DNA of 64,000 bases from an uncultured Anaeromyxobacteraceae bacterium (GCA_964522105.1 CAZFVA010000008.1:20225-84224); one strand, 5' to 3'. Counted from the first letter of the stretch, positions 2,814-59,787 are shown. Made by a program: numbers and translations. The notes: generated by a model not told the origin, from the sequence alone.

Positions 2814-4208
2814 TCATTTACCAAGCAAATCCAAAACCTTACCATGCACACCGAAAAAGTCACGTCCGCTCATGCCCAGAATTACATCACCGACATCAGC
2901 ACTGGCAACAGCTTCGGCCGCAAGTTCATCCATGTCCGCGATAATCGCCGCCGGAGTCCCCCGGGCGCTGATGTCAGAAACAAGGCGGGCCATGTCGATT
3001 TTCTGGTCCTGGGGAAGGCCATCGGCCTTTTCAAAAGGACTGCAGAACAGCACACGATCAGCCTGGGAAAACGCGTCTACATATTCAGACTGAAAAACCT
3101 TACGACGACTGGTGTTTGATTCCGGTTCGAACAACGCGATGATTTTGCTGCCGGGATACGCCAGCCTTACCGCGCGGATAGTCTCGCGGACGGCCGTCGG
3201 GTGATGGGCAAAATCGTCAATGACTGTGACCCCGCGCGCAACACCTTTTACTTCCTGACGTTTTTTGATGCCTGAAAAGGAAATAAGCGCATCAGCCAGT
3301 CGCGAATTGACTGCCCCGATTTCATGCAGAACGCCAAGAGCGGCAATCGTATTTGAAAGGTTATGTCTGCCAATCAACGGCGAAACGAACCGGCCGACGA
3401 CAACTTCATTGCAGATAAGATTAAAGCTGACCCTGCCCCCGGCCCACTCGATGCCAGTCGCATGCCACCAGCCTTCGTCGATGCCGAAAGTGCGGACTGT
3501 GGCCGCTGTTTCTGTGGCCGCCGCCGCCGCGTTGGCATCGTCAACTGGTATCAGCAGCGGGCTTCCCGCAGGCATGATCTTCGCAAATTTCGCAAACGAC
3601 GCGATTACTGCCGCAAGGTCGGCATAGATGTCAGCATGGTCAAATTCGACGTTATTGATGATTGCGGCCTGCGGCGCATAGTGAAGGAATTTCGGCCCCT
3701 TATCAAAATAGGCCGTATCGTACTCGTCGCCTTCAACTACAAAAAATCGGCCCGCCCCTGCCCTGAAATTGGACCCGAAATCGAGCGGCACCCCACCCAC
3801 CAGATAACCGGGATCAAACCCCTGGGCATACAGAAGCCACGACAACAGCGACGATGTCGTTGTTTTGCCGTGCGTTCCGGTCACGACAACCGGAAACCTG
3901 CCTGCCAGATAGTGTTCACGCAAAGCTTCCGGAAAAGACATGAACGGGATGCCGCGTGCCCGCATCGCTTCGGCTTCAGGATTGTCGCGCCTCATCACGT
4001 TCCCGACAACGACAAGGTCAGGTTCCCAGTCCAGATTGCTGCCGTCATAAGGTGACATGACGTCTATCTTCAGGCTGGCAAGCAGGTCGCCGACCGGCGG
4101 GTACGGATACACCCTGTCAGAACCCCTGACTTCATGACCTGAATCCTGAAGCAACCCGGCAACTGCCGACATTGCGGTACCGCCAATCCCCATAACGTGA
4201 ATCTTCAT
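2814..4208 (-). CDS. mpl: UDP-N-acetylmuramate:L-alanyl-gamma-D-glutamyl-meso-DAP ligase (murein peptide ligase)
   Basis: Begins MKIHVMGIGGTAMSAVAGLL, has the Mur ligase P-loop VTGTHGKTTTSSL and the DDFAHHP motif. ATG at 4208. Confidence 0.85.
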   Translation of the reverse strand: MKIHVMGIGGTAMSAVAGLLQDSGHEVRGSDRVYPYPPVGDLLASLKIDVMSPYDGSNLDWEPDLVVVGNVMRRDNPEAEAMRARGIPFMSFPEALREHYLAGRFPVVVTGTHGKTTTSSLLSWLLYAQGFDPGYLVGGVPLDFGSNFRAGAGRFFVVEGDEYDTAYFDKGPKFLHYAPQAAIINNVEFDHADIYADLAAVIASFAKFAKIMPAGSPLLIPVDDANAAAAATETAATVRTFGIDEGWWHATGIEWAGGRVSFNLICNEVVVGRFVSPLIGRHNLSNTIAALGVLHEIGAVNSRLADALISFSGIKKRQEVKGVARGVTVIDDFAHHPTAVRETIRAVRLAYPGSKIIALFEPESNTSRRKVFQSEYVDAFSQADRVLFCSPFEKADGLPQDQKIDMARLVSDISARGTPAAIIADMDELAAEAVASADVGDVILGMSGRDFFGVHGKVLDLLGK

Positions 4209-6800: not shown

Positions 6801-8033
6801 ATGAAAAAGCGAACAGAAAACATGCCTGCGACGGTAGAAGACCATCTTTTCGACAGAGTTGCAGCAATACTGGAACAGGCTCGTGCAAACGTGGTTCGAG
6901 CCGTAAACCACAACATGGTCATCGCATACTGGGCCATCGGCCGCGAGATTGTGATAGACCTGCAGCGTGGCGAGAGCCGTGCTGATTATGGGCAGCAGGT
7001 ATTCAATGAACTATCCGAACGATTGACCGTAAAATATGGGGCGGGCTGGTCAAAAACAAACCTGTGGAGTTTCAGACTCTTCTATTTGTTATATGCCGAT
7101 CGAGTACCATCAATTCCACACACACTGTGTGTGGAATCTTCAGAACAAACTGATTTAATTGACTTAAGTCGTAATTCGAAACACTGGCCCATCAAGGATT
7201 CTGATCATTCGAGAGCCGCTGGCCCCGATTTAACTTTTCATCTTTCGTGGTCTCACTACCGAACCCTGATACGGGTAGAAAACGACGAAGCTCGGATTTA
7301 CTATGAACACGCGGCAATCGCCGAAGGCTGGAGCGTAAGAGTACTTCAGCGTCAAATCAGCTCGCAATATTTTGAACGTCTGGCAAGAAGCCGTAACAAG
7401 CGAAAAAAGGCAGACGGAAATTTTCCCATTGTGGTTGAACCCGATGCCGTTCCAGTCGCCACAACTGAGCATGAACCGATTCGCGCACTGATTGACACCA
7501 TTAAGGACCCGTACGTATTGGAATTTCTGGGCATCCCTGATCCAACTGCATTACATGAATCCGATCTTGAAACCGCGATCATCGGGCATCTACAGGAATT
7601 CATGCTCGAATTGGGAAAAGGATTTGCTTTCGTGGCAAGGCAGAAGCGATTGTCATTTGATGGTGACGACCTGTATGTTGACCTGGTCTTCTATAACTGC
7701 TTTCTGAAGTGCTACCTGTTGATTGACCTGAAGATGGGAAGACTGACGCATGGTGATGTCGGTCAGATGGATGGATACGTACGGATGTTTGACGACCTGT
7801 ACGCGGCGGCCGACGACAACCCGACCATCGGCCTGATCTTGTGCACCCAGAGTAACAACACAGTAGCCCGATATTCGGTTCTGAACGATCGCAGACAAAT
7901 ATTCGCCAGCAAGTACGTCACATATCTTCCGACCGAAGCAGAATTTTCCATTGAAATCACCCGCGAAAGAGCCCTGGCCGAACAACAGATTGCGGCGACG
8001 GCGGAGCGTCAAATATCCAAAATCTGCCGTTAA
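6801..8033 (+). CDS. YhcG/DUF1016-like PDDEXK nuclease family protein
   Basis: AYWAIGREIV...RADYGQQVFNELSERLTVKYGAGWSKTNLWSFRLFYLLY plus LSWSHYRTLIRVENDEARIYYE are typical of YhcG/DUF1016. A GGAG RBS precedes the start. Confidence 0.7.
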   Translation: MKKRTENMPATVEDHLFDRVAAILEQARANVVRAVNHNMVIAYWAIGREIVIDLQRGESRADYGQQVFNELSERLTVKYGAGWSKTNLWSFRLFYLLYADRVPSIPHTLCVESSEQTDLIDLSRNSKHWPIKDSDHSRAAGPDLTFHLSWSHYRTLIRVENDEARIYYEHAAIAEGWSVRVLQRQISSQYFERLARSRNKRKKADGNFPIVVEPDAVPVATTEHEPIRALIDTIKDPYVLEFLGIPDPTALHESDLETAIIGHLQEFMLELGKGFAFVARQKRLSFDGDDLYVDLVFYNCFLKCYLLIDLKMGRLTHGDVGQMDGYVRMFDDLYAAADDNPTIGLILCTQSNNTVARYSVLNDRRQIFASKYVTYLPTEAEFSIEITRERALAEQQIAATAERQISKICR

Positions 8034-9330: not shown

Positions 9331-10526
9331 TTAAGTTGCGTGCGAACAAGCGCCTGCAGTCGACTATCCGCAACCAGGTTCTGTGGACCAGATTCGGCTC
9401 AAAAATCGGGCGTCCGGTGGCATGGGTCACGTCAGGATCGCCGGTCGAAATTGTACTTGCCGCAGGTTTTATACCGTTTTACCCGGAAAACCATGCGGCC
9501 ATCTGTGCGGCACGCGGGATGTCCATGGAACTGGCAGAACAGACCGAAGCTGAAGGATATTCCCGCGATCTGTGCAGCTATTTCCGCGTCGATATCGGCA
9601 GTCAGATCAGTGGCAAGTCACCGATGGGCCATCTGGTTCCCCCGGATGTCATCCTGCTGTCAAACAACATCTGCGGCACAGTCCAGAACTGGTTCCGACT
9701 GACGGCCGAACGATTCAATGTACCGCTGCTGTTTCTGGACACACCTTTTAACGACGGTCCACCGACCGATGCTGACCTGGCCTACGTCCGCGAACAGATG
9801 CTCCACATAGCGGCAGAAGCCGGCCGAATAAGCGGCCACCGCGTAACCGATGCCCGTCTTGGCCGGGTCGTATCACGATCCCGGAAAGCCCTGGAACTGT
9901 GGGCCGAAGTCCTTGGAATGGCGACCGGACACCCGGCACCGTTCACATCGTTCGACGCATTTGTCCACATGGCCCCGATCGTGTCCATGCGCGGCACCAG
10001 ACGCTGCATTTCTTATTACAAGAAACTGCGTGACGAGGTTCGCGAACGCGCAAAGGCAGGCATTTCGTCTGTGCCCGACGAACGCGTCCGCGTGGTCTGG
10101 GACAACATCGCGATCTGGCCGGCGCACAAAGAGCTGAAGAAGCTTTTTGAAAAATACCACGTGTCTCTGGTGGCCGACACATACACCAGCGCATGGAGTG
10201 CCGAGGACTTAAACCCTGCGGACCCGTTCACCAGCCTGGCCCGCGTCTATACCGACATCATTTTGAACCACGGTGCAGAACACCGCGTCAAAGTCATTTC
10301 AGATATGGTGCGCAAGTTTGACGCCAGCGGCTTCGTGCTGCATTCGAACCGGTCGTGCAAACGCTATTCGCTTGGCCAGTTCGGCGTAAAAAACGCAGTG
10401 TCGGCCGCCACCGGCGCCACCGGTGTCGTAATCGAAGCCGACATGGCCGATCCACGCTCGGTCTCGTTCGAACACCTCCAGCAACGGCTTGTGCCGTTCT
10501 TCGAGGCACTGGGGGCATCCGAATGA
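9327..10526 (+). CDS. 2-hydroxyacyl-CoA dehydratase D-component family subunit (HgdA-like paralog)
   Basis: VAWVTSGSPVEIVLAAGFIPFYPENHAA and SCKRYSLGQ motifs of the HgdA/BcrB family. Overlaps its neighbours by ATGA at both ends. Confidence 0.7.
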   Translation: MIKLRANKRLQSTIRNQVLWTRFGSKIGRPVAWVTSGSPVEIVLAAGFIPFYPENHAAICAARGMSMELAEQTEAEGYSRDLCSYFRVDIGSQISGKSPMGHLVPPDVILLSNNICGTVQNWFRLTAERFNVPLLFLDTPFNDGPPTDADLAYVREQMLHIAAEAGRISGHRVTDARLGRVVSRSRKALELWAEVLGMATGHPAPFTSFDAFVHMAPIVSMRGTRRCISYYKKLRDEVRERAKAGISSVPDERVRVVWDNIAIWPAHKELKKLFEKYHVSLVADTYTSAWSAEDLNPADPFTSLARVYTDIILNHGAEHRVKVISDMVRKFDASGFVLHSNRSCKRYSLGQFGVKNAVSAATGATGVVIEADMADPRSVSFEHLQQRLVPFFEALGASE

Positions 10527-11278
10527 ACCGCGTAGCAGGGTTGGACATTGGATCTACCGCCACCAAGTGCGTCGTCATGGAAGACGGACAGGTCACGGCG
10601 CGCGTCGTTGTGCCGTCGATGCCGGACATGCGCGTCGCGGCCGAAAGCGCACTGCGGGAATGCGGGGCCGAAGGCATTCCGGTCCTGACTACCGGCTATG
10701 GCCGCGCCCTTTTCGAGTCGCGTCTGGCGCAGGTCAGCGAGATCACCGCCCTGGCGGCCGGCATAGGCTTCGTCGCGCCAGGCGCAGTTACGGTCGTGGA
10801 CATCGGCGGCCAGGACAGCAAAGTTGTGCGGGTTGAAGCGGGGAAAGTCCTTGATTTCGCAATGAACGACCGCTGTGCAGCCGGGACCGGCCGATTTCTG
10901 GAAGTCATGAGCCGCGTTCTGCACGTCCCTTTTGACCAGTTCGACGCGGTCAGTTCCAACGCAGTCGAACCGCTGCCGGTAACCAGCACCTGCACCGTTT
11001 TCGCCGAGTCAGAGGTCGTCGGTCTGCTTTCCGCCGGACACTCGCCCGCCAGAATACTGAAGGGCGTTCTGGCGTCGGTGTGCAGTCGTGTGGCGTCACT
11101 GGGACAACAGGTTGGCTTGAAAAGCCCGGTCGTGGCAACCGGCGGCACGGTCCAGTCGCAGGCAGTCGTCCGTGCCCTGTCATCCGCCCTGGGCCTGCCG
11201 GTAACGATACCCGACCATCCCCAGTTCGTCACAGCCACCGGCGCTGCCCTGTTGTGTGCAAGACGTGTGGAAGGCTAA
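10523..11278 (+). CDS. CoA-substrate-specific enzyme activase (BcrAD/BadFG/HgdC ATPase)
   Basis: Starts MNRVAGLDIGSTATKCVV (actin-like ATPase phosphate-1 motif). Shows VVDIGGQDSK and CAAGTGRFLE, which are typical of HgdC-type activators. Confidence 0.8.
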   Translation: MNRVAGLDIGSTATKCVVMEDGQVTARVVVPSMPDMRVAAESALRECGAEGIPVLTTGYGRALFESRLAQVSEITALAAGIGFVAPGAVTVVDIGGQDSKVVRVEAGKVLDFAMNDRCAAGTGRFLEVMSRVLHVPFDQFDAVSSNAVEPLPVTSTCTVFAESEVVGLLSAGHSPARILKGVLASVCSRVASLGQQVGLKSPVVATGGTVQSQAVVRALSSALGLPVTIPDHPQFVTATGAALLCARRVEG

Positions 11279-12054
11279 GGATTGACCCGCTGTTTCTTCC
11301 TGACATTCATACCAAGATTGCGAATCATGGGCCGCGGTCCAAAACGCGTAATCGCAGAAAGTATCTTGTACTGCCAGCCCGGCACCGACAACGCCTTCCC
11401 GGAAAGCGCATTCTTCCAGGAAGCGGCCACGACTGCGTCAGCCTCAAGCCACATGAACTCGGGCACACTCTTCATCTTCATTCCACCGCGCTGGTGAAAT
11501 TCAGTATGAGTAAATCCGGGACACAGGGCACAGACCTTCACGCCTGTTCCCTTCATTTCGGTATTAAGGGACTCTGATAAAACTGTCACATAAGACTTTG
11601 CCGCGCTGTAAGTACCACCGGCTATCCAGCCTGCCACCGAACTTACGTTAATGATTACGCCGTCGTTGCGCTGTTTCATGCCGGGAAGGACTGTATGGCA
11701 GAGCCGCATCGGGGCCGTCACCAGAACCTGCAGCATCTGGTCTTCAAGCTCACGGTTGCTGGCCAGAAAACCTTCCTTGATACCGAAACCGGCATTATTT
11801 ATCAAAACCGAAATCGGTTGCCCCTCCTGGTTCAGCCTGGCTTCAACCGCACCGCAGCCTTCCCTTGTACCTAAATCTGCCCGCAGCACCTCGACCATAA
11901 TCTGATACTTTTCCGTCAAGATCGCGGCCTGCGCCTGCATCCTGGCTTCATCACGGGCAACCAGGACAAGATCAAATCCTTTCGCTGCCAGCAGGCGGGT
12001 AAAGGATTCACCGATTCCGGCGCTGGCACCTGTTATCAAAGCTGTTTTTCGCAA
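11275..12054 (-). CDS. SDR family short-chain dehydrogenase/reductase
   Basis: TGASAGIG Rossmann motif, NNAG, and a YSAAK catalytic YxxxK. Confidence 0.85.
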   Translation of the reverse strand: MRKTALITGASAGIGESFTRLLAAKGFDLVLVARDEARMQAQAAILTEKYQIMVEVLRADLGTREGCGAVEARLNQEGQPISVLINNAGFGIKEGFLASNRELEDQMLQVLVTAPMRLCHTVLPGMKQRNDGVIINVSSVAGWIAGGTYSAAKSYVTVLSESLNTEMKGTGVKVCALCPGFTHTEFHQRGGMKMKSVPEFMWLEADAVVAASWKNALSGKALSVPGWQYKILSAITRFGPRPMIRNLGMNVRKKQRVNP

Positions 12055-15457: not shown

Positions 15458-16669
15458 ATGAAACATATGAAAATCATCGGCAAACCGGTAACGATTCAGC
15501 AGGCACTTGAAAAAGTACTTGATCACCAACCGGCGCGTCGTTTCCTGCAAATGCCTTTGTCAGATGCATCTGAACAAACACTGGCCACAGACGTTGTTGC
15601 CCCGCACGACTATCCCCCTTTTGACCGTGCCATGCTGGATGGCTACGCCCTGCGTCGCAGCGAAGGCCGGATGCAACTGCGGATACTTTCAAGCGAACCG
15701 ACCGGTGCCGGACACGAATCACAACCACTGGCCCCGGGCCACGCCGCCCGCGTCATGACCGGCGCTCCGGTACCGCACGGAGCCGACCTTGTGATTGGAT
15801 TCGAAGACGCGGATCTTACCAACCCCGGGTACGTTCAGTTTTCAAACGTGCCGGACGGCCCCGCCATTTCGCGACAGGGGTGTGAAGCCGGAAAGGGCGA
15901 CACCCTTCTTTCAAAAGGCTCGCGGTTGACTCCGGCCGCACTTGGAGTTCTGGCTTCGTGCGGTATAACCCATGCTTCCGTAATTTCCCCGCCGATCGTA
16001 GACATCATCTGCACCGGGGACGAGCTGGTCGAACCGGATCAAATTGCACAGGGACCACAGATCAGAAATTCAAACGGAACCACATTGATGGCTCTGGTCA
16101 GGTCGCTTGGATGCCAGATCCGCTACCGTGGAATCGTTTCGGACAACTTTGATTCAATACAAAACCTGGTCACGCAGAGCGTTAACGCACCTGATCGATG
16201 CGATCTTCTGATATTGACAGGCGGAGCCTCGGCAGGCGACTACGACCATGTCCCCGACGTCCTTGAATCAACCGGCTTCGCCATACAGTTTCGCGCCGTC
16301 AAAATGAAGCCGGGAAAACCGGTAAGTTTCGGCGTTCATGGCTCGCTGGCGGCCTTCGGACTGTCTGGAAATCCGGTTTCATCGTACCTGCAGTTTCAAA
16401 TGCTGGTCGCCCCGCTGCTGCGTTCATGGCTTGGACAGGAACCGTGTCCCGGCAGATCGGCCATAATAGAAAACGATTTGCAGTGGCAGGATTCAGGTCG
16501 CACACAGATTCTGCCCATGAAAGGTTACGCGACCGGAATACTTGCTGAAGTACCATTGCAGGGTTCTGCCGATCTGATCGGTCTGGCACGCGCAGATTGC
16601 TTTGTCATCGCCCCCGAAAATCGGACGTACATGAAAGCAGGGGAGAAGGCACATGCGCGACCGCTTTGA
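15458..16669 (+). CDS. moeA: Molybdopterin molybdotransferase
   Basis: PFDRAMLDGYA hallmark, ~400 aa, MoeA domain order. Confidence 0.85.
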   Translation: MKHMKIIGKPVTIQQALEKVLDHQPARRFLQMPLSDASEQTLATDVVAPHDYPPFDRAMLDGYALRRSEGRMQLRILSSEPTGAGHESQPLAPGHAARVMTGAPVPHGADLVIGFEDADLTNPGYVQFSNVPDGPAISRQGCEAGKGDTLLSKGSRLTPAALGVLASCGITHASVISPPIVDIICTGDELVEPDQIAQGPQIRNSNGTTLMALVRSLGCQIRYRGIVSDNFDSIQNLVTQSVNAPDRCDLLILTGGASAGDYDHVPDVLESTGFAIQFRAVKMKPGKPVSFGVHGSLAAFGLSGNPVSSYLQFQMLVAPLLRSWLGQEPCPGRSAIIENDLQWQDSGRTQILPMKGYATGILAEVPLQGSADLIGLARADCFVIAPENRTYMKAGEKAHARPL

Positions 16670-17453
16670 CCGGGAGATCAGTTACCTGCGTATTTCCGTG
16701 ACCGATCGCTGCGATCTTCGTTGCCAGTACTGCCTGCCGCCGGGGCAGAACGAATGGTTTGAAAAGGCCGACCTGCTGACTGATCAGGAAATTATTGAAT
16801 TTACCAGGGTCGCAATTTCTTCCGGCATCACCAAAATCCGCATCACCGGTGGTGAACCCCTGCTTCGCCCCGGAATCGTTCCATTAGTGAAGGAAATGGC
16901 CTCGCTGCCTGGAATCAAAGACCTGGCAATGACCACAAACGGGATGTCTCTTGCCATGTATGCCAGGGATCTGTTCCTGGCGGGACTGCAACGCGTAAAT
17001 GTCAGTATGGACAGCATGGACACCGGACTGTTCCGCAAAATAACCGGGGGCGGAGACCTGGAACAGGTCCAGAACGGAATTCGCGTCGCACTTGCTGTCG
17101 GACTGAAACCTGTAAAAATTAATGTCGTAAATATCCAGGGGGTTAACGACGAAGAACGCGAATCTCTGATCCGTTTCGCAACCGATCTCGGGGTCGGTAT
17201 AAGGTTTATCAGGCAGATGTCACTGGCCGATGGCACTTTTGCACCGATGGAAGGCGGAGAGGGCGGCGACTGTGGAAAGTGCAACCGCATCCGTCTTCTT
17301 TCTGACGGGACTGTGAAACCGTGCCTTTTTGGTACGGAAGGCTTCAACATTCGCGAATTCGGCATTGAAGACGCTTTAAGAATGGCGATTACGTCCAAAC
17401 CTGCCCGGGGAACAAAGAATCCCGGGGGACGCTTCAATCGCATAGGAGGTTAG
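16653..17453 (+). CDS. moaA: GTP 3',8-cyclase (short-form MoaA)
   Basis: [17 protein letters not shown] radical SAM cluster, GGEPLLR, and a C-terminal CGKC...PC second cluster. It is 266 aa (short/archaeal-like) and overlaps the moeA end. Confidence 0.85.
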
Positions 17454-17454
17454 T

Positions 17455-17901
17455 ATGCTGACTCATCTGGACGCAGACGGCAGAGCTGTGATGGTGGATA
17501 TATCCCACAAGCCGGTTTCGCACCGCACAGCTGTCGCAGAAGGCTTCCTGCGCATGGCACCACAGACGGTGGCCCTGGTACGCGATGGATTGATGAAGAA
17601 GGGCGATGTTGAATCGGTCGCTGTGATCGCGGGAATTACTGCCGCAAAAGAAACGTCGCGACTGATTCCGCTGTGCCACAACGTCCCGCTGTCTTGTGTG
17701 AACATCGAAATCGAATTTCTGGAAAATGGCGCACGGTCAATCGCGACTGCAAAATGCACAGGTCAGACAGGTGTTGAAATGGAGGCACTGACGGCTGTAT
17801 CTGTGTCGCTGCTGACCATCTATGACATGTGCAAGGCCGTTGACAAGCAGATGGAAATCACGTCGGTACGGCTGGTCAAAAAGCAGAAGGAATCTTTATG
17901 A
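17455..17901 (+). CDS. moaC: Cyclic pyranopterin monophosphate synthase
   Basis: [29 protein letters not shown]; 148 aa. Confidence 0.9.
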
Positions 17902-51105: not shown

Positions 51106-52839
51106 ATGTCCCGTTTCCCGATGCTGCCGATTCTGCTGGGGGTCATTCTGGCCCTTGGATGTTCTGAAAGCGTAACGCCCGGTACCGATCTCGGTCAGGA
51201 CACATCAGTCACTGACATTGCGGTCACGGATATTCCGGTGGCGCAGGACGTCGTCGCGGACAGCCGTGACACCGTCCAGACCGACGTGGAGCCTGAGGTC
51301 ATCGCAGACGTAACGGTTGACGTGGACCTGGATGTAATTACCGACGTTCCGTCAGACGTAGTCGTCATCCCGGACGTGGCCCCCGGCACGTTCCCGGCGC
51401 GCGAACTGCCATTCGCATACGCCCGTCCGGCTGAAGGCGACCCGATTTCCGAAGCTGACGTAACCGCCTTCACAAAGAAAGTCACCGGCCTGTGGAAAAA
51501 GACGGGCTGGGCCCGCTGGATTCTGCGCACCAGCACCGGCGTTGACCAGTCAACGGGCAAGGACGACTACCTGGCCTGGCACAATGACATCGCGGCGGCA
51601 AAGGCTGATGGCGTCGTCACATTCAGTCACATGGGCGGCGAACACAACATGTGGATCCCGGGATCAAAGGTCCTGTCCGAGGCAATCGGCGGTTACCTGC
51701 TGACCGGCGACTGGGAATTTGCCAAAATGACCGAACAGTACTGCAAAGGACTGTCAGCGGTAATCAAGGGCTTCGTCTGGGATGAAGAAGACACAAACAC
51801 ATTCCTGATGGCCCGCGCAATCTTCCCGATGGACCAGTCCTTCACGCTTGATGAAACGAACTGGCAGGACGACGGCCGCAAGAAGGACGTCATCTTCAGC
51901 ACCATGTACAAAATCGAAGACGGCTGGAACGCCCACACATTCCCGTGGCCGAACAACCCGACGTGGGGCGCCGAGTACGTCACCAACATGCGCAGCAAAG
52001 ACGACGTACGCAGCATCGTCCGCACGACGATGTTCCTGCCTTACGTTCTGGAAGATGCGCCGGACGAATGGGTCAAATCGGCTTGCCAGGAAACGTGGGA
52101 CCTGATGAAAGGCTTCAACAAGGACATCGTTGACAGCGGATACAACATCCGGACCAAGGACAACACCGGCGCGGCGTACATCATCCCGTGTGAAGACCAG
52201 GATCTGGGCAGCTACATGTGCTACATCGGAATGGACCCGACGAACGAGTGCTGCCAGCGCATTTCATCTGATTTGATTGCCTACGGCGAACAACTGACAG
52301 AAGAATGCGGTAACTGCACCGGCAGCGTTTATGACGCCTACGCCAGCGTGGTCCACTTCTACAACATCCCGATAATCTGGGACTATCATATGGCGGCAGT
52401 CGGCAACGCCCTGGTAAACCTTCAGGCAAAGCTTGCATACAAGCTGCTTGGCGGCCTGGACGATCGCATCGACAGTTACATGCACCCGACCGAAGACGAA
52501 CCTGGCCACACGGACAGTGCCTGGAACAAGGAACTGGCGGTCCTGCTGGTCCAGACGGCCTCCGTCGGCCTGCCGCTTACATGGTTCGAGGCGACTCACA
52601 TTCACAAACAGTGGACTCAGGCTGTCACCGACTATGAAAACTGGCCGAACTGGGATCTGTGGGCTGAAACAGTGGCCGATGGCCCGGTCCAGGTCCGTCC
52701 CGGCGCGACCGACGGCGGCATCGACATCGAAGCCATCACAATGTTCCTGGAATACTGCAATTCACCTTTCAAGAATCCGGCAGGCGTCAAATTCATCGAC
52801 TGCGACATCGTGAAAGACCCGACCAAGTGGGGCGAGTAG
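51106..52839 (+). CDS. Hypothetical secreted lipoprotein with N-terminal D/V/T-rich repeat region
   Basis: Lipobox LALGCSES, degenerate VTDI/VADV repeats, and a large Trp-rich domain of unknown family. The last 14 codons lie in a 42-bp sequence that recurs at 55726. Confidence 0.55.
   Translation: MSRFPMLPILLGVILALGCSESVTPGTDLGQDTSVTDIAVTDIPVAQDVVADSRDTVQTDVEPEVIADVTVDVDLDVITDVPSDVVVIPDVAPGTFPARELPFAYARPAEGDPISEADVTAFTKKVTGLWKKTGWARWILRTSTGVDQSTGKDDYLAWHNDIAAAKADGVVTFSHMGGEHNMWIPGSKVLSEAIGGYLLTGDWEFAKMTEQYCKGLSAVIKGFVWDEEDTNTFLMARAIFPMDQSFTLDETNWQDDGRKKDVIFSTMYKIEDGWNAHTFPWPNNPTWGAEYVTNMRSKDDVRSIVRTTMFLPYVLEDAPDEWVKSACQETWDLMKGFNKDIVDSGYNIRTKDNTGAAYIIPCEDQDLGSYMCYIGMDPTNECCQRISSDLIAYGEQLTEECGNCTGSVYDAYASVVHFYNIPIIWDYHMAAVGNALVNLQAKLAYKLLGGLDDRIDSYMHPTEDEPGHTDSAWNKELAVLLVQTASVGLPLTWFEATHIHKQWTQAVTDYENWPNWDLWAETVADGPVQVRPGATDGGIDIEAITMFLEYCNSPFKNPAGVKFIDCDIVKDPTKWGE
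52797..52838. repeat. 42-bp direct repeat, copy 1 (cgactgcgacatcgtgaaagacccgaccaagtggggcgagta)
   Basis: Exact 42/42 identity with 55726-55767. It encodes the DCDIVKDPTKWGE tail of the 51106..52839 lipoprotein. Confidence 0.9.
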
Positions 52840-52861
52840 ACAATCGCCCGTACGGTCAATC

Positions 52862-54289
52862 TTACAATGCCGGGGCTTCGTCACATCGACCGTCAGGAGT
52901 TATTACACAGCAGTCGGCATTACGCCGGCGGCAAAGGCGATCTTCAGGAATCGGCTCACGGGCCAGCCTGGCTCTGGCCCATTCAATCTGTTCCATCAGC
53001 GACCAGAGACCGCCATCCGCGTGCCCGGCGTTCTTGCACGAGAGATAGTCAAGCTGGTATCCCTGATCACAGAGCCGATCAAAGTCCTGTTCCTGAAGAG
53101 GCGTGTTGATCATTTCGTCCAGCTCGGAATACACCATGAACGTCGGAATATGGCGGCGCGGTTTGACCGGTGAAGTCGCCACAGTGTTGACCCTCAGATA
53201 GCAGTCCCACGGCGGCAGTTCTTCCCATTTGTCGGCCATTACTTTTTCAATGAATTCGGGCTGATAGAACGTCTCCAGGGGAAGCGTCTCAAGCTGTTCA
53301 ACAGGCACCACGTCACCTGCCGAGCACTCGTCCTGCGGAAAGACGTAGTTGAAGGCATTAGTCGCAAGGTTATAAGGCTCCACGTCGGTCAATTCGGAGT
53401 GAAGGTCTTCCGGCATGCCGTACCAGGCTCGTTGCGCCGTCAAAAAGGCGGCGAAGCTTATGGTCGTCGGACCAGGATCTGTAAACGCCAGTGCGCCCAG
53501 CGGCCGCAAAGACGATGGGGGAAGGGACGCCAGGACGGCGACTGGCTCGAATTCTGGAGCGTAATATGGTCCGTACAGTTCGGTCATCAACGCGGCATGG
53601 CCTCCCTGCGACCCTCCCCAGATCAGCAGATCGTCCGTTATCTTCACCCTTTCCTGCAGTTCCGGCAGAGCCAGCAGTTCCCTGCCTGCCCGCACTGCGT
53701 CCCACGAACCGATCGCTGTCTGTTCCGCCACAAGATACCCGTGCGTCACCGTCGATGGCGCTCCGGAACCGTTCATCCCAATATAGTCGGGTGCGATTGT
53801 TACAAACCCCTCGGCAGCAAAGATACCGGCATGGAACGGTCCAAGAATCCCGCGGCTCGGCGCGCAGGGATCCGAAAATCCTGTCGTTCCATGCATGAAT
53901 ACCACCAGCGGATATTCCAGGCCTTCCTGCTGCACGAAGTCCGGGATACCCAGAATGGCCGTGGCCTCGACAAGTTGCCCGCGATCCTGCGTCGTGTACC
54001 TGAAACTGTATGTCCGGCAGCCGTTCTGAACAGGTGCCAACTTACCCAGATCATACAGTGGCAACAGGCCGTTAATGGTTTCAGGGTCGATATTGAAAGT
54101 CGGCAGTTCTTCCCACGACACCAGCTTACCGACCTGCTCGCGGGGAACCAGTTCGTACGGAGTCATCCCGCACAGAGCTACCGGCATGACGGCAGGCCCC
54201 AACTCATCTTCACCGCAGGCAGTCACCAGACTCAGACAGCACGAAACCGCCAGAGGCACCAGCGCCTTCACCAGGATTGCGAATCTCAT
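52862..54289 (-). CDS. Secreted alpha/beta-hydrolase lipase (LIP/secretory lipase family-like) lipoprotein
   Basis: Signal/lipobox (LVTACGE) and a GGSQGGHAA nucleophile elbow (GxSxG). The start was chosen at ATG 54289 (MRFAILV…). Confidence 0.6.
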   Translation of the reverse strand: MRFAILVKALVPLAVSCCLSLVTACGEDELGPAVMPVALCGMTPYELVPREQVGKLVSWEELPTFNIDPETINGLLPLYDLGKLAPVQNGCRTYSFRYTTQDRGQLVEATAILGIPDFVQQEGLEYPLVVFMHGTTGFSDPCAPSRGILGPFHAGIFAAEGFVTIAPDYIGMNGSGAPSTVTHGYLVAEQTAIGSWDAVRAGRELLALPELQERVKITDDLLIWGGSQGGHAALMTELYGPYYAPEFEPVAVLASLPPSSLRPLGALAFTDPGPTTISFAAFLTAQRAWYGMPEDLHSELTDVEPYNLATNAFNYVFPQDECSAGDVVPVEQLETLPLETFYQPEFIEKVMADKWEELPPWDCYLRVNTVATSPVKPRRHIPTFMVYSELDEMINTPLQEQDFDRLCDQGYQLDYLSCKNAGHADGGLWSLMEQIEWARARLAREPIPEDRLCRRRNADCCVITPDGRCDEAPAL

Positions 54290-54426
54290 TACTTCCCCCG
54301 GATAATATGTAAATGCTTTTGACCGCACGTGACGACGACCATGGTCAATGTTAGCATAATAAGGCAGTAACTGTCACAATATCACGGCCACTTGCGGAGC
54401 TACCCATCAGGACGGGAGGTAAAACG

Positions 54427-55698
54427 ATGAAAGCCGGTTTCGCCACAATATCGATTCTGCCACCGCGCGCATCCCTGGGAGGTGTGGCCGACGATCGCAT
54501 GCCGCGCTGGTACACTTCGGTGCTGGACCAGCCACGCGCGCGGGCAATCGCCCTCGAGGACATCTCGACAAGTGTGGTACTGATTTCTGCCAACCTTCTG
54601 GATTTTCCCGCGCCACTTACCGACGCGGTCCGCGCCCGGTTCAGGTCTCGAGTCCCAGGTGACGTCGAACTGATCCTGCACGGCGACCACACGCACAGCG
54701 GGCCTGGAAATTTCTGGCCACATCTGCTGGCCCCGAAGTTTCTGGGTCCTTACATGCCTGAAAACCTGAACTTCCTGGCAGACGCCCTGGCCGAGGTTGC
54801 CGGGCTGGCGTGGGAATCGCGAAAGGATGCCTCGGTCAGGTGGGCACGAGCAGTGGTCGATGGCCTGCAGGTTAACCGCAGGCGGCCCGATGGTCCGACC
54901 GATCCGCAGCTTCGCGTATTGACTTTCCACGACGAAAACGAAGCAGCAATGGGCGCTGTCGTTCATTTTACAGCCCACCCCAGAATCGTTGCCGAAAGCT
55001 GCGACCAGTTCTGGGCCGCATCCGGGGACTGGCCCGGAGCAGTCTCGACAGCCCTGGAAAAAGAGTTCCCCTGCGTGGCCGTCCTGAACGGGGCGTTAGG
55101 CGGAATTGACCCGATAATGCCACCGCAGCCTTACCAGGCCGGACCTGCCCTGACTGCCTTCGTCGATCCACTGGTAGCCGCCGTCAGATCTGCCATTGAA
55201 GGCGCCGCACCTGCAAAGCCATTCGTGTCTTTCCACCGTTCCGAGGCGGTATTTGATCGATTCAGGGCCGACCCGTGGCCAGACGGCTTTGCCTGGTGGA
55301 CGCCACTGACCTGGCCGCTTGTCAGATTCTGGGATTTCGTGGCATCACGCCGCATCCCCAAGCCGCACCGCGTTCCAGTTTCCGCACTGCGCATCGGTGA
55401 CATCGCATTTGTCTTCCATCCATCGGACTATGGCGTCGGATGCGGCATTGTCACCCGCGAAAACGGACGGCTGCTGGGATTGGACGCCATGGCAGTCTGT
55501 CACGCCGACGATTATGCAGGGTATATCCAACCGGCTGACGAGATGGACAAGATCCCCCTGCCCCGGGATCCGTACCGGTTTTTCACAATCTATGAAAACC
55601 TGATGGGCTTTCACGGCCGTGATGCTGCAAAGATATTCGCCGCCGCAGAAAAGGACGCCCTGTCCCACGTCGCCAAAACCCGGTCCAGATTTCCATGA
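54427..55698 (+). CDS. Neutral/alkaline ceramidase-like hydrolase (N-terminal catalytic domain family)
   Basis: GFATISILPP…GGVADDRM…HGDHTHSGPG pattern resembling the neutral ceramidase N-terminal domain. AAGG RBS. Confidence 0.5.
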   Translation: MKAGFATISILPPRASLGGVADDRMPRWYTSVLDQPRARAIALEDISTSVVLISANLLDFPAPLTDAVRARFRSRVPGDVELILHGDHTHSGPGNFWPHLLAPKFLGPYMPENLNFLADALAEVAGLAWESRKDASVRWARAVVDGLQVNRRRPDGPTDPQLRVLTFHDENEAAMGAVVHFTAHPRIVAESCDQFWAASGDWPGAVSTALEKEFPCVAVLNGALGGIDPIMPPQPYQAGPALTAFVDPLVAAVRSAIEGAAPAKPFVSFHRSEAVFDRFRADPWPDGFAWWTPLTWPLVRFWDFVASRRIPKPHRVPVSALRIGDIAFVFHPSDYGVGCGIVTRENGRLLGLDAMAVCHADDYAGYIQPADEMDKIPLPRDPYRFFTIYENLMGFHGRDAAKIFAAAEKDALSHVAKTRSRFP

Positions 55699-55721
55699 AT
55701 TGATTGACCCGGGCCCAGGGG

Positions 55722-56390
55722 CTACCGACTGCGACATCGTGAAAGACCCGACCAAGTGGGGCGAGTAACCGGAACGGCATCTGCCTGACCAGGCGTATCA
55801 CCCGGACAGGTCTCGAAATCATCGACCAGCGGGTCAAATGTCCCGTCAAAATTCACCAATCTGCATACGATCGGCAGTGAGCGAACCGGATAACAGCCGT
55901 CCTGCACCAGCGCATCGTCATTTTCGATCTGCAGACAGTCCGGTGGCTGGCAGGCACGCCATCCGAATCCAAACGACGAGTGATAAAACCGGTAGGTCAG
56001 ACCATCGTATTTCAGTCTTATAGAGTCGTTATGGTGTTGCCCACCCCAGTTGTAGGTGGCGTCCTCGACCACTTCAACAACCCCGTTGATGGAGACCCAT
56101 GCACCCGCAGTTTCATAGTGACAGACCTCTTCCGTACCGCATGAAATCGGGGTTGTCCGGATGTAGAAATATCCGTTGATTTCGCCGTAGTTGAACGAAC
56201 ATACGAAGTCCGCATCGCTGACCGATTTGTACGGTTCCAGGTCATATTCGCGCAGAGTGCGAATCTGGAATCCAAAACAGGTCTCGAAGCAATCGGTCAC
56301 GACAGTTGCGTCATCATCCGGATTCCGGGCGACCGACTCACACCCGCCAGTTACAATAACTAGTAACAAAATGATGATGTTACGCAGCAT
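55722..56390 (-). CDS. Cys-rich hypothetical lipoprotein
   Basis: Lipobox IVTGGCES and ~14 Cys. Its C-terminal 14 residues are encoded by the repeat copy, which suggests the 3' end was remodelled. Confidence 0.5.
   Translation of the reverse strand: MLRNIIILLLVIVTGGCESVARNPDDDATVVTDCFETCFGFQIRTLREYDLEPYKSVSDADFVCSFNYGEINGYFYIRTTPISCGTEEVCHYETAGAWVSINGVVEVVEDATYNWGGQHHNDSIRLKYDGLTYRFYHSSFGFGWRACQPPDCLQIENDDALVQDGCYPVRSLPIVCRLVNFDGTFDPLVDDFETCPGDTPGQADAVPVTRPTWSGLSRCRSR
55726..55767. repeat. 42-bp direct repeat, copy 2
   Basis: Identical to 52797-52838. The next base after the repeat differs (taa here versus tag in copy 1). On the minus strand it supplies the last 14 codons (…TRPTWSGLSRCRSR*) of the 55722..56390 lipoprotein, in a different frame. 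Confidence 0.9.
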
Positions 56391-56391
56391 C

Positions 56392-57588
56392 TTAATCCTG
56401 CCTGTCCGGCTGGAAGGTTTTCACACATCTTACGTTAAAACTGGCTGAAGTCGGGGTTTGGTGCACATGACCGCTGGCCATATGCACTATGAAAACTGAC
56501 GCCGGGGTTGTCATGATCGGGTTGGGTGTAGAAGTCCAGAAATAAAGATTATTTCCGCAGAACTTTCCAAGGTCGTCGCTCCACCTGACACAACCTTCTT
56601 CGGCAACCATTACGTCGATTATTGAAACAATTTCAGTAGTTGTAGGAACGCGCCACCCGCTGCCTTTGTCAGCACATGCACTCAGGGCACCTTTCCAATC
56701 AATATCCAGACCTGAAAAAGTTGATTCCCATGCAATACCGGTCAGCCTGTCAAACACGATCTCCGGGAATTTCAGAAATCGCCCTGGAAGGCTGGCGCTG
56801 GCCGGCTCGGGGGCACGGACGCATCGCACCGGATAGAACGCTTCACGCTCGCAGGCTTCAATGTTTCCGCGACGATGAACTGTACAGAAGTTCGCCGACA
56901 TATAGGCCTGTGTGCCTGACCAGTACATCTGGTCTCCGGCACATCCGGTCCCGAAAACAGGATCCCACATACAGTCGTCATTACCGGCATCAACAAGAGT
57001 AAAGAGTTCAAAAATGTCGGCCATGCGCCAGCCAGCCCCGGGAAGATCAGGCGGATCTGAACAATAGCCGGCGGCAGCCTCAAGGGATAACGCCCCTGTT
57101 GCTCTGGCGGCCCAGATTAACGATGTTGCCGTATCAAGAACAGTCCCGTCATTATTATCTACAAAGGCGCGTGCACCACCGGCGACATGGGAATCCTGAC
57201 CGTACCAGGGCTGGCCGTATTGAATATTGCTGCAGGAAGCCAGATCTTCATCTTTCAGACACTGTTTTGAACCTGTGGGGACTGCCCGGCAGTGGCAACC
57301 GTCTGAAATAGCAAAATTGGACGGGCAGGTGTCAGTCCAACATTCTTCCAGACAGATTCCTTCCTGACATGCGCCGTTGTTACAGGGCGTACCATCGGGC
57401 GCCACTTCCGCCTGACAGTTTGCAAGTTCCGAATTCCAGACAAGAATCTCGCACTCACGGGTTGAAGGCGCGCAGGTCGAAACTGCGTCTGCCTGGACGT
57501 CGTCGATTACTTCCAACGGAAGTTGATTCGACAATCCACAGGCGCTCAAAGTCGCGGCAAGCAGAATTAAGAACACAGTCCACTTCAT
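56392..57588 (-). CDS. Lipoprotein with two DUF1566 (Lcl C-terminal-like) domains and Cys-rich N-terminal region
   Basis: Lipobox LSACG. Carries LIWAARATG…GYCSD…GWRMADIFEL…YWSGT and IAWESTFSG…GWRVPTTTEI…YFWTSTP, which are two DUF1566 signature units. Confidence 0.6.
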   Translation of the reverse strand: MKWTVFLILLAATLSACGLSNQLPLEVIDDVQADAVSTCAPSTRECEILVWNSELANCQAEVAPDGTPCNNGACQEGICLEECWTDTCPSNFAISDGCHCRAVPTGSKQCLKDEDLASCSNIQYGQPWYGQDSHVAGGARAFVDNNDGTVLDTATSLIWAARATGALSLEAAAGYCSDPPDLPGAGWRMADIFELFTLVDAGNDDCMWDPVFGTGCAGDQMYWSGTQAYMSANFCTVHRRGNIEACEREAFYPVRCVRAPEPASASLPGRFLKFPEIVFDRLTGIAWESTFSGLDIDWKGALSACADKGSGWRVPTTTEIVSIIDVMVAEEGCVRWSDDLGKFCGNNLYFWTSTPNPIMTTPASVFIVHMASGHVHQTPTSASFNVRCVKTFQPDRQD

Positions 57589-57783
57589 ACGTATAACCGA
57601 TTCAAGGAAGTTGATTCGGGCCCCGGAAATCGATCCTTGGCGGTCATATTATCAGTGTAATCAAAGACCTTCAAACATTAGTCCATCGCCGGTCTACCGG
57701 GTCAGAAAGCTGCTGCGAAACATTAGGAATGAGGTTTGTTTTTCATCCCGGCAACAAGGTCACCATTCCGAAAAAATTGGCGA

Positions 57784-59787
57784 TTACTGAACAGAGTCGG
57801 AATGTTCCAGCGCAGCAAGTTCTTCAGCGGCGGAAGTCCACTGGTCAAAAACCTCGTCCAGCTTTGAACGCAGTTCCCTTGCCTGGTCACCAACGACCCT
57901 CGCGCGGTCAAGGTCTTCATACAGGTCGGGGGAAACAAGTTCTTCTTCAACCTTGTGAAGCTCGGTTTCAAGGGCCGTTATCTTCTGTTCGAACTTCTCG
58001 ACTTTGTCGCGCAATGGCTTCAGCAGCCGGTATAGACGGTTTCTGCGCTCGGCTTCGTCACGCTTGCGCTCACGGTCCTGATTTCTGCGCGCCGCCGACG
58101 CAGCGTCGGATTCTGAAACAGGCTGCGCTTCGGTCTGCGCGGTAAGGCCACCGGTGCGCGAAACGTAATACGTGTAGTTGCCTTCGTACCTGGCAGCCTG
58201 ACCATCCCTGATTTCAACGACCGCTGATGCGACGTTATCCATAAAACGACGGTCATGGGTCGTGAAGATGATAGCCCCGGAATGTTCCTTCAACGCCCGC
58301 TCAAGGACTTCGCGCGACGCGATATCAAGATGGTTCGTCGGCTCGTCCATCACCAGGATTCCAAACGGTTGCAGCAGTATCCTGGCAAGCATCAGGCGGG
58401 CCTTTTCGCCGCCCGACAATGACACAACCTTTTTGTCGTAATCGTCATCACCAAAAAGGAAAGCGCCCAACAGCGACTTGACGTGCGGCGCGGTGTGAAG
58501 GTCGGCCACGGCAAGCATCGTCTGTTCCAGCGTCAGGTCCGGATTCAGAATTTCATACTGGTCCTGCGCGAAGTAGCCGACTTTGACGTTGTCGGCCAGC
58601 ATCACTTTACCTTCGTCCGGCACCGTCACACCGGCGGCAAGACGCAGCAGCGTAGACTTTCCTGCACCGTTCAGACCGACCAGCGCAAGACGTTCGCCGC
58701 GATGCAGGCGCAGATTCAGGCCCTCAAACACCGTTCGCGCGCCATATCTGCGGGTCACATCTTCAAGGCTCAGTGCAAGGTCGGGCGACCTTGGCGGCGA
58801 TGGAAACTTGAAACGGACGTTGCGGACGCCTTCCGGGGGATGAAGTCTTTCAACCTTTTCCAGCGCCCTGATACGCGACTGAACGACCTGCGCCCTGTCC
58901 TTCCTGACGCGGTTCTTCGCGATGAAGTCCTCGATATCCCTTATCTTATCAAGCTGTTCTTCATATTTCTTCCAGGCAAGTTCCATGGCCTTGGCGCGCT
59001 CTTCCACATACCGGTCATAAACTGGCTGCTTCGGATTGCCACCAAAATCGGTGGCACCGTCCCGCGACACCTCGACCACTTTTGTGACAGTACGATTAAG
59101 GAAAAAACGATCGTGCGCCACCATCACAACGGCGCCCGGGAACGTCTGCAGGTAATTTTCAAACCACAGAATCCCTTCAAGATCCAGATGGTTGGTCGGT
59201 TCGTCAAGAAGCAGAAGGTCGGGCGAATCAAGCAGCAGCCGCGCCAGTTCGACACGCATCAGCAGCCCGCCCGACATCGTCCCGACAGGTCTGTTCAGAT
59301 CGTCCTGAGCAAATCCAAGACCTGTCAGAATCGACATCGCCTTCGACGGCATCGCGTCTGCTTCAGCCGCGGTCAGACGGTCCTCAATTTCGGCAAGCCT
59401 GTGAACGACCGCATCATGAGAATCGTCGTGCACGTCCCCGCCATGAGCGGCCATATGCCTGTCCAGCTCGGCCAGACATTCCGCCTTGCGATCCAGAAGT
59501 TCGCCGACGCCACGCGCATTTCTGACACAGAATTGAACAAGACCGAGATCACCGGCGCAGCTCGGATGAATCTCCTGCTGCAGATAACCGAGCCTGATTC
59601 CTTTCTGAATTTCGATGCGGCCTGCATCGGCACTGATTTCACCAAGGATTATGCGGAACAGCGTCGTCTTGCCGGTACCGTTCGGCCCGACCAGACCTAT
59701 CCTGTCCCGCTGATTAATGCGGATATTTACGCCTGAAAAAAGCAGGCGGGACCCAAACGACTTCCTTATGTCTATAAGGTCAAGCAT
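57784..59787 (-). CDS. ABC-F family ATP-binding cassette protein (two ABC domains, no TMD)
   Basis: Two Walker A sites (GPNGTGKTT, GLNGAGKST), two LSGG signatures, and the inter-domain linker of ABC-F. Confidence 0.9.
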   Translation of the reverse strand: MLDLIDIRKSFGSRLLFSGVNIRINQRDRIGLVGPNGTGKTTLFRIILGEISADAGRIEIQKGIRLGYLQQEIHPSCAGDLGLVQFCVRNARGVGELLDRKAECLAELDRHMAAHGGDVHDDSHDAVVHRLAEIEDRLTAAEADAMPSKAMSILTGLGFAQDDLNRPVGTMSGGLLMRVELARLLLDSPDLLLLDEPTNHLDLEGILWFENYLQTFPGAVVMVAHDRFFLNRTVTKVVEVSRDGATDFGGNPKQPVYDRYVEERAKAMELAWKKYEEQLDKIRDIEDFIAKNRVRKDRAQVVQSRIRALEKVERLHPPEGVRNVRFKFPSPPRSPDLALSLEDVTRRYGARTVFEGLNLRLHRGERLALVGLNGAGKSTLLRLAAGVTVPDEGKVMLADNVKVGYFAQDQYEILNPDLTLEQTMLAVADLHTAPHVKSLLGAFLFGDDDYDKKVVSLSGGEKARLMLARILLQPFGILVMDEPTNHLDIASREVLERALKEHSGAIIFTTHDRRFMDNVASAVVEIRDGQAARYEGNYTYYVSRTGGLTAQTEAQPVSESDAASAARRNQDRERKRDEAERRNRLYRLLKPLRDKVEKFEQKITALETELHKVEEELVSPDLYEDLDRARVVGDQARELRSKLDEVFDQWTSAAEELAALEHSDSVQ

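Follow-up and report, generated by a model that had tools for sequence, protein, structure and literature searches.

Insertion-duplication, by a Campbell-type single crossover or by homology-facilitated illegitimate recombination, is described from laboratory examples in Escherichia coli, Acinetobacter and Streptococcus and leaves its cargo between two direct copies of the homologous segment that came with it (PMC3240628). No element-encoded enzyme is involved, the target gene can stay intact, and the junctions are without inverted repeats. For E. coli, single crossovers of circular molecules gave insertions with flanking duplications of 109-950 bp and were commoner than true homology-facilitated illegitimate recombination (PMC3240628). 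These traits recur at the locus analyzed here, in which a lipase gene and a ceramidase-like gene lie between two exact copies of a 42-bp sequence that forms the end of the gene for a 577-amino-acid (aa) lipoprotein. The locus belongs to a stretch of 64,000 nucleotides (nt), hereafter the window, from an uncultured Anaeromyxobacteraceae bacterium (Myxococcota; GCA_964522105.1 CAZFVA010000008.1:20225-84224). It departs from the described cases in the length of the duplication, which is 42 bp and not 109-950 bp, and in being a natural event in an uncultured Myxococcota population instead of a plasmid construct.

Other known systems resemble the locus in part. Integrative islands and cis-mobilizable elements (CIMEs), the latter having kept attL and attR and lost their integration genes (PMC5704250), share with it perfect direct repeats that regenerate the 3' end of a gene, a single-copy empty site and, in the case of CIMEs, an interior without an integrase. 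The locus differs from them in that decayed integration or transfer genes are absent, the cargo fills the element, the core site has no symmetry, and no cognate integrase-bearing element was found at ~30 related loci of the 577-aa gene. Transposons, insertion sequences and casposons likewise place a direct target duplication around their insert, but theirs measures 2-15 bp against 42 bp here, and this insert has no transposase, Cas1 or terminal inverted repeats. Integron gene cassettes are, like this insert, small cargo-only units without a recombinase of their own; unlike them, it shows no attC-like imperfect palindrome, its only structure being a 6-bp hairpin, no intI or attI was found in the window, and the two genes are divergent with their own promoter region, whereas cassettes lack long direct repeats of target sequence. 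The insertion is strain-specific, fits a known kind of event and reveals no new class of mobile element and no new principle.

Results

The 42-mer CGACTGCGACATCGTGAAAGACCCGACCAAGTGGGGCGAGTA occurs as two exact plus-strand copies at 52797-52838 and 55726-55767, with 0 mismatches between them, which confirms the direct repeats around the gene pair reported in the initial annotation of this DNA. Allowing up to 3 mismatches, no further match was found elsewhere in the 64-kb window, and 100 dinucleotide-preserving shuffles gave 0 matches. The pair is also the sole direct repeat of at least 22 nt (14-nt seed) across the whole window.

An allele without the insert was found in a related lineage, on a Logan contig from SRR26784071 (L008) that was located via P0122 (214 aa), the closest homologue of the 222-aa lipoprotein encoded to the right of the second copy. 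This contig carries an amino-acid permease gene (98% aa identity to the window), the orthologue of the 577-aa gene (578 aa, 94%), that of the 222-aa gene (214 aa, 76%) and the gene for a lipoprotein with an Lcl_C domain (82.5%), and the insert is absent. Its 214-aa gene is convergent with its 578-aa gene at a distance of 1 nt, and the 42-mer region occurs in it once, differing from the window copies by four substitutions. This is the empty site anticipated in the initial annotation, in which the two lipoprotein genes would abut with one repeat copy. When the DNA is aligned, the left flank of copy 1 is matched by the left flank in L008, and the right flank of copy 2 is matched by the TAA stop codon of L008 and the sequence downstream of it. 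Because the window flanks are collinear with this single-copy site, the window can be described as carrying a 2887-bp insertion (52839-55725) plus a 42-bp duplication, and the insertion with its tail duplication is, on this alignment, almost certainly real. The synteny and the single tail copy of L008 thereby bear out the earlier proposal that an insertion or recombination duplicated and regenerated the 3' end of the 577-aa gene.

As reconstructed from this comparison, the ancestral site is a 577-aa gene lying tail-to-tail with the 222-aa gene, essentially without a spacer. The predicted 577-aa protein is unaltered by the insertion, and an orphan tail is left beyond the insert. Remoter homologues of the 577-aa protein (54-74% identity) were also considered as empty sites and rejected, their neighbors being entirely different, which leaves L008 alone as usable. 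The features of the locus are as follows.

51106..52839, plus strand: gene for the 577-aa lipoprotein, the target gene; open reading frame (ORF) with lipobox LALGC, third-position GC content (GC3) of 0.74 and strong codon bias
52797..52838, plus strand: repeat copy 1, which supplies the 577-aa gene with its functional final 13 codons and the opening two bases of the stop
52830..52849: small hairpin (GGGCGA / TCGCCC, with an 8-nt loop holding the stop codon) lying across the boundary of copy 1 and the insert's left end
52839..55725: inserted segment of 2887 bp, as delimited by three-way alignment of both junctions with L008
52862..54289, minus strand: gene for a secreted lipase of the LIP family, with a PF03583 match and the serine motif GGSQG
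54290..54426: divergent intergenic region of 137 nt, AT-richer, with promoter-like hexamers and ribosome-binding sites
54427..55698, plus strand: gene for a ceramidase-like protein of 423 aa, with a borderline PF04734 match
55726..55767, plus strand: repeat copy 2, the orphan 577 tail, with the ancestral TAA after it and a right flank whose orthologue in L008 is the post-stop sequence
55768..55775: 8-nt patch with 5 substitutions relative to L008, which removes the TAG stop of the orthologous 214-aa gene
55722..56390, minus strand: gene for the 222-aa lipoprotein on the right flank, whose last 17 residues are a read-through into copy 2 antisense
56392..57588, minus strand: gene for a 398-aa lipoprotein with an Lcl_C domain on the right flank, syntenic with L008 at 82.5% aa identity

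Copy 1 starts at the last base of an Ile codon, continues with 13 full codons (DCDIVKDPTKWGE) and breaks off two bases into the stop codon, so that it does represent the gene end, although not quite the last 14 residues and stop that had been assigned to it. The first base of the insert completes the stop codon after copy 1 as TAG, and the stop after copy 2 is TAA. Copy 2 begins 27 nt past the stop codon of the 423-aa ORF. Its minus strand had been read as the C-terminal 14 residues of the 222-aa ORF; the antisense reading stands, but the repeat covers 13 full and two partial codons, and the TAG stop of that ORF lies one base past it. The bases bordering the two copies are unlike each other (ttcat/T/g at copy 1, gctac/T/a at copy 2), and when the junction sequences were compared, no microhomology was found at either end of the insert. 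A degenerate similarity described immediately upstream of the copies (attcatcgac versus attgattgac) did not survive inspection: the string near copy 2 lies at 55699-55708, 17 nt before the repeat and not adjoining it, and the upstream flanks are no more similar than by chance (1438 of 2000 shuffles were as good). The hairpin at the left junction has no counterpart at copy 2. Folding of the DNA at 52780-52870 gave z = -2.3, with 5 of 200 shuffles folding equally well, and the structure, with a stem of only 6 bp, is no more than suggestive of a native convergent-gene end.

The filled allele is present in other assemblies. Contigs of the Joint Genome Institute (JGI) assemblies 3300045131, 3300044987 and 3300044990 read through both junctions, contain both 42-mers unaltered and are 99.6-99.96% identical to the window, and in JGI 3300044991 the two junctions lie on separate contigs (L002 and L011). 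Logan unitigs of 2947 bp (L063, L064), found from several Sequence Read Archive runs, consist of the insert plus 30 nt of repeat on each side, as expected for a true 42-bp repeat at k=31. Single-nucleotide variants between samples occur in the insert and in the flanks and are absent from the repeats. The source metagenomes comprise the four JGI samples, SRR35365870 and SRR35365923. In exact-protein look-ups, all contigs with identical 577-aa or 222-aa proteins were filled, and no empty allele was seen among the contigs with identical flanking proteins. Should the insert be excised, the circle junction would be expected to read ...CCCAGGGGCTAC + 42-mer + GACAATCGCCCG..., and the empty site of the same strain ...AAATTCAT + 42-mer + ACCGGAACGG....

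The 577-aa protein has 248 homologues and belongs to a large uncharacterized lipoprotein family that is widespread in metagenome-assembled genomes of Myxococcota. Nearly all members end in ...EYCNSPFKNPAG..F(V/I)DCD.V.DP..WG(E), a tail kept in >100 homologues. Because the tail is conserved across the family, copy 1 can be taken as the authentic, selected end of the gene, and copy 2, by the same sequence comparison, as its displaced duplicate. No match to the protein was found in Pfam, in NCBIfam or among Protein Data Bank (PDB) sequences. The alignment of the window protein (51106-52839) with homologues P0001-P0120 has ~50 invariant residues, including an invariant C-terminal CxSP...DC motif. 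An AlphaFold model is confident (predicted local distance difference test score 87.5, predicted template modeling score 0.85), and a Foldseek search of the PDB with it returned nothing significant, the best hit (E = 0.3) being a faint likeness to alpha/alpha-barrel glycoside hydrolases. The codon bias of the gene equals that of GroEL in strength, which suggests that it may be highly expressed. Some genomes carry two paralogues of the family, 31-38% identical and 4-6 kb apart on the same strand (L006, at 10001-11698 and 15929-17698; L026; L028); those of L006 have 26 of 28 nt of their tails in common, which illustrates how strongly the tail is conserved.

From left to right, the insert has 23 nt ahead of the minus-strand lipase gene, 137 nt between this gene and the plus-strand ceramidase-like gene, and 27 nt at its right end. 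Both gene calls of the initial annotation hold. The lipase matches PF03583 (LIP) with E 2e-10 and is a predicted lipoprotein, with a signal ending in LVTAC; an alternative GTG start lies at 54328, and the JGI gene call is 475 aa long. The 423-aa protein, which has no obvious signal peptide, barely passes the threshold of PF04734, the N-terminal domain of neutral/alkaline ceramidases (32.7 bits against a cut-off of 32.1). With predicted promoters and ribosome-binding sites in the 137-nt divergent region, the insert is a putative self-contained expression unit. The comparison of GC and codon usage with the flanks that had been proposed was carried out and gave no foreign signal: in codon usage, both genes resemble the window at large (z = 0.38 and -0.01), and the GC content likewise lies within its range, and a distant foreign origin of the insert was rejected on these grounds.

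No terminal inverted repeats of the insert were found, and searches at the insert for Rfam matches, structured RNA and terminators gave nothing significant. Neither insert ORF has a recombinase identity in Pfam and further sequence searches. The absence of an integrase or transposase stated in the initial annotation holds for the insert and for the other window ORFs with a Pfam scan or a precomputed Pfam call, which are housekeeping genes (Mur ligase, pyruvate kinase, molybdenum-cofactor synthesis, DnaK, RodA, PBP2, MreBC, GroEL, ABC-F and Rpe). A self-encoded integrative element is ruled out by the missing integrase in the insert. The only gene of the window that recalls a mobile or defense element encodes a YhcG-type PDDEXK nuclease (DUF1016; 6801-8033), has a low GC content (0.487) and lies amid housekeeping genes, 45 kb from the insert.

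Distant homologues of the two insert genes also occur together elsewhere: ceramidase-like and LIP lipase genes are adjacent, and on the same strand, on only two contigs (L043, 6473-9311; L056, 6491-9311) and 4 kb apart on a third (L014, 4664-11139). These arrangements suggest that the two families may be functionally partnered, though not recognizable as a mobile unit. Long direct repeats bracketing lipase or ceramidase homologues elsewhere were looked for and not found. An unrelated contig (L039, Ga0272442_10001116) has an exact 38-bp direct repeat (331-368 and 3010-3047) around ~2.7 kb that encode a MutS2-like ATPase of 655 aa and include a further ORF of 203 aa, and it may represent another long-duplication insertion.

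The insertion had been held to have remodeled the C-terminus of the neighboring lipoprotein, and this part of the earlier interpretation does not stand. Members of the 222-aa family end in ...CPGDPN, and none of the homologues has the 17-residue extension VPVTRPTWSGLSRCRSR. The 214-aa gene of L008 has its own TAG just right of the 578-aa stop codon, whereas in the window 5 of 8 nt at 55768-55775 are substituted, this TAG is lost and the ORF continues antisense through copy 2. In the same frame at copy 1, the next codons are CGA TGA, which would give the same extension peptide without the insert; the C-terminal change is therefore due to the loss of the stop codon and not to the insertion. The read-through stops one base past copy 2 and would stop directly after copy 1 in an uninterrupted allele, a coincidence of stop positions.

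Copy 1 and copy 2 agree at 42 of 42 positions, and the tail of L008 differs from both at 4 of 42. Polarized with outgroups, three of these four differences are derived in L008, and one (ACC) is derived in the window lineage and common to both copies. If the duplication were older than the split of the lineages, the chance of zero differences between the copies would be about 0.015 at the observed rate. Because the copies are identical while the L008 tail differs at four positions, the insertion is probably younger than the split from the L008 lineage, unless gene conversion has equalized the copies.

Read from left to right, nucleotide divergence from L008 steps up from 4.4% to 15.7%, with the best change point at 52806, inside the 42-mer (2-lnL [log-likelihood] interval 52767-55769; lnL gain 27.6), and synonymous divergence (dS) rises from about 0.2 to about 0.7 across the step. 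This is no more than suggestive of a recombination breakpoint. As proof of a breakpoint at the repeat, the step was set aside, being statistically strong but confounded with the gene boundary and codon bias.

Gene content also varies further to the right. A second contig from the same sample as L008 (L065, SRR26784071), compared with window 57589-57797, shows a convergent PAS/histidine-kinase gene (at least 495 aa) 9 nt beyond ABC-F, a place that the Lcl_C lipoprotein gene occupies in the window; homology ends at the end of ABC-F. Given several such differences in gene content, the interval from the 577-aa gene to ABC-F can be regarded as a plasticity zone shaped by more than one event.

Discussion

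As the mechanism, we tentatively favor an insertion-duplication by host recombination between close relatives, in which the donor DNA already carried the tail beside the lipase gene, a proposal to which we give somewhat less than even credence. The incoming DNA would have brought its own 577 tail, the gene pair most likely having followed a 577 orthologue directly in a strain closely related to this one, and would have been integrated by the general recombination of the host, without an enzyme encoded in the insert. This could have taken place through a circular intermediate and a single crossover within the 42 bp of homology, or through a homologous crossover in or before the 577-aa gene combined with a single illegitimate join at a point 42 bp ahead of the resident stop codon. 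On its right, the repeat ends inside the 577 stop codon (TA/G versus ancestral TA/A). That the incoming DNA carried a tail is suggested by this position because homology is expected to end where the gene ends; under a random staggered cut, it would be a coincidence. The native-like codon usage of both insert genes in turn points to a close relative, or to the same genome, as the donor. The hairpin across the left junction, such as a native meeting point of convergent genes might have, hints at a carried-in tail too, and the lack of recombination enzymes and terminal inverted repeats in the insert and the recombination-prone, variable nature of the locus also speak for the proposal. For efficient RecA processing in Bacillus subtilis, the homology needed is reported to be at least about 40 bp (PMC4824099), and 42 bp are available here, although this minimum may not hold for Myxococcota.

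Several observations weigh against this proposal. A homology of 42 bp is near the low limit for a RecA-dependent crossover, and no donor arrangement of a 577 orthologue followed by a lipase gene was found among ~30 other 577 loci, which have neither a lipase nor a ceramidase-like gene in their vicinity. For the ceramidase-like gene, the best homologue reaches only 62% identity, and for the lipase about 50% (in JGI metagenomes); all of them stand in other contexts. Identical repeats call for identical tails in donor and recipient, or for later gene conversion; the evidence from the hairpin, with its 6-bp stem, is weak; and the step in divergence coincides with the boundary between the strongly codon-biased 577-aa gene and fast-evolving lipoprotein genes, so that constraint could explain it. 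The mechanism is moreover inferred from an end product that is alike under two processes, as crossovers of the RecA type and those of a tyrosine recombinase would give the same final sequence.

The second of these processes would make the 42-mer the attL/attR identity block of a non-autonomous islet, CIME-like or a cassette, with a tyrosine recombinase encoded elsewhere and an attP that supplied a replacement 3' end. Integrative elements are classically recognized by perfect direct repeats, tens of bp long, that overlap a conserved gene and restore its 3' end, and the termination of the repeat at the gene end, the one copy at the empty site and the high conservation of the target tail, as is usual for integrase targets, all agree with such a site-specific integration. 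We consider it unlikely nonetheless: besides the lack of an integrase in the insert and among the window ORFs with a Pfam scan or a precomputed Pfam call, two intact metabolic genes take up the insert, leaving 23 and 27 nt at its ends, with no decayed element genes despite the recency of the event, and no dyad symmetry or structure was found within the 42-mer. Nor was a second copy of the tail found beside ~30 other genes of the 577 family, a degenerate pattern of the tail gave 0 matches in 2.9 million viral contigs, contigs with identical flanking proteins show no empty-site allele, and the codon usage of the insert is native. The repeats could alternatively have arisen in situ, either from a 42-nt staggered break that was filled in and ligated to an unrelated 2.9-kb fragment, by a transposase-like process or end joining, or from a replication template switch that returned 42 nt upstream. 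Identical repeats would then be automatic whatever the source of the insert, the junctions are indeed without microhomology, and many Myxococcota encode Ku and LigD. Yet 42 bp is far above the target-site duplications of 2-15 bp known for bacterial transposons, neither a transposase nor terminal inverted repeats are present, the location of the right boundary exactly in the 577 stop codon would be left unexplained, and an insert copied from the same genome would break assemblies at its ends, where the contigs read through; an origin in situ thus appears quite improbable.

Two further explanations question the direction or the reality of the event. A deletion between 42-bp direct repeats leaves one copy and would mimic an empty site, and with two lineages only, polarity is argued indirectly; the filled state with two repeats could in this case be ancestral and the gene pair lost from the L008 lineage. 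This is very unlikely, given the identity of the copies (42 of 42) beside 4 of 42 differences between the lineages, with the chance of about 0.015 given above, and given that the base derived in the window lineage is present in both copies although copy 2 is free of protein-level constraint, its read-through being non-conserved. An earlier insertion with duplication would, in addition, still be required. It could finally be argued that no insertion occurred, copy 2 being the relic of a paralogous lipoprotein gene, a scenario that the initial annotation had itself named as a possible refutation, or the product of a chimeric assembly through a shared k-mer. It is true that the tail motif is conserved throughout a large family, that some genomes have paralogues 4-6 kb apart with tails alike at 26 of 28 nt, and that the data are metagenome assemblies. 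However, paralogues that are 31-38% identical are unable to yield two copies that are 100% identical in DNA over 42 bp, and what lies to the right of copy 2 is orthologous to the sequence beside the only copy in L008. As for the assemblies, three independent JGI assemblies cross both junctions with variants in insert and flanks, and the unitigs end where a true 42-bp repeat at k=31 would have them end. We regard this explanation as effectively refuted.

Beside these alternatives, a further reading deserves mention. It is conceivable, if a long shot, that the 42-mer is a true recombination site, so that the insert would be a minimal cargo-only cassette with its own promoters and a replacement tail for a lipoprotein gene that is conserved across Myxococcota, moved into and out of the 3' end of this gene by a chromosomal recombinase acting in trans or by RecA alone through excision, uptake and re-integration. 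If true, either form would constitute a route, undescribed so far, by which accessory genes are ferried between convergent genes that are tightly packed.

In conclusion, the locus provides a clean natural case, with both filled and empty alleles, in which accessory genes are wedged between spacerless convergent genes and neither gene is damaged. Their intactness is explained by a second copy of the gene end, which was either brought by the incoming DNA or made by the event. The comparison also marks the region from the 577-aa gene to ABC-F as a strain-variable hotspot in this uncultured Myxococcota clade, and the insert itself, judged from the predicted functions of its two genes, is a probable recently gained lipid-degrading trait.

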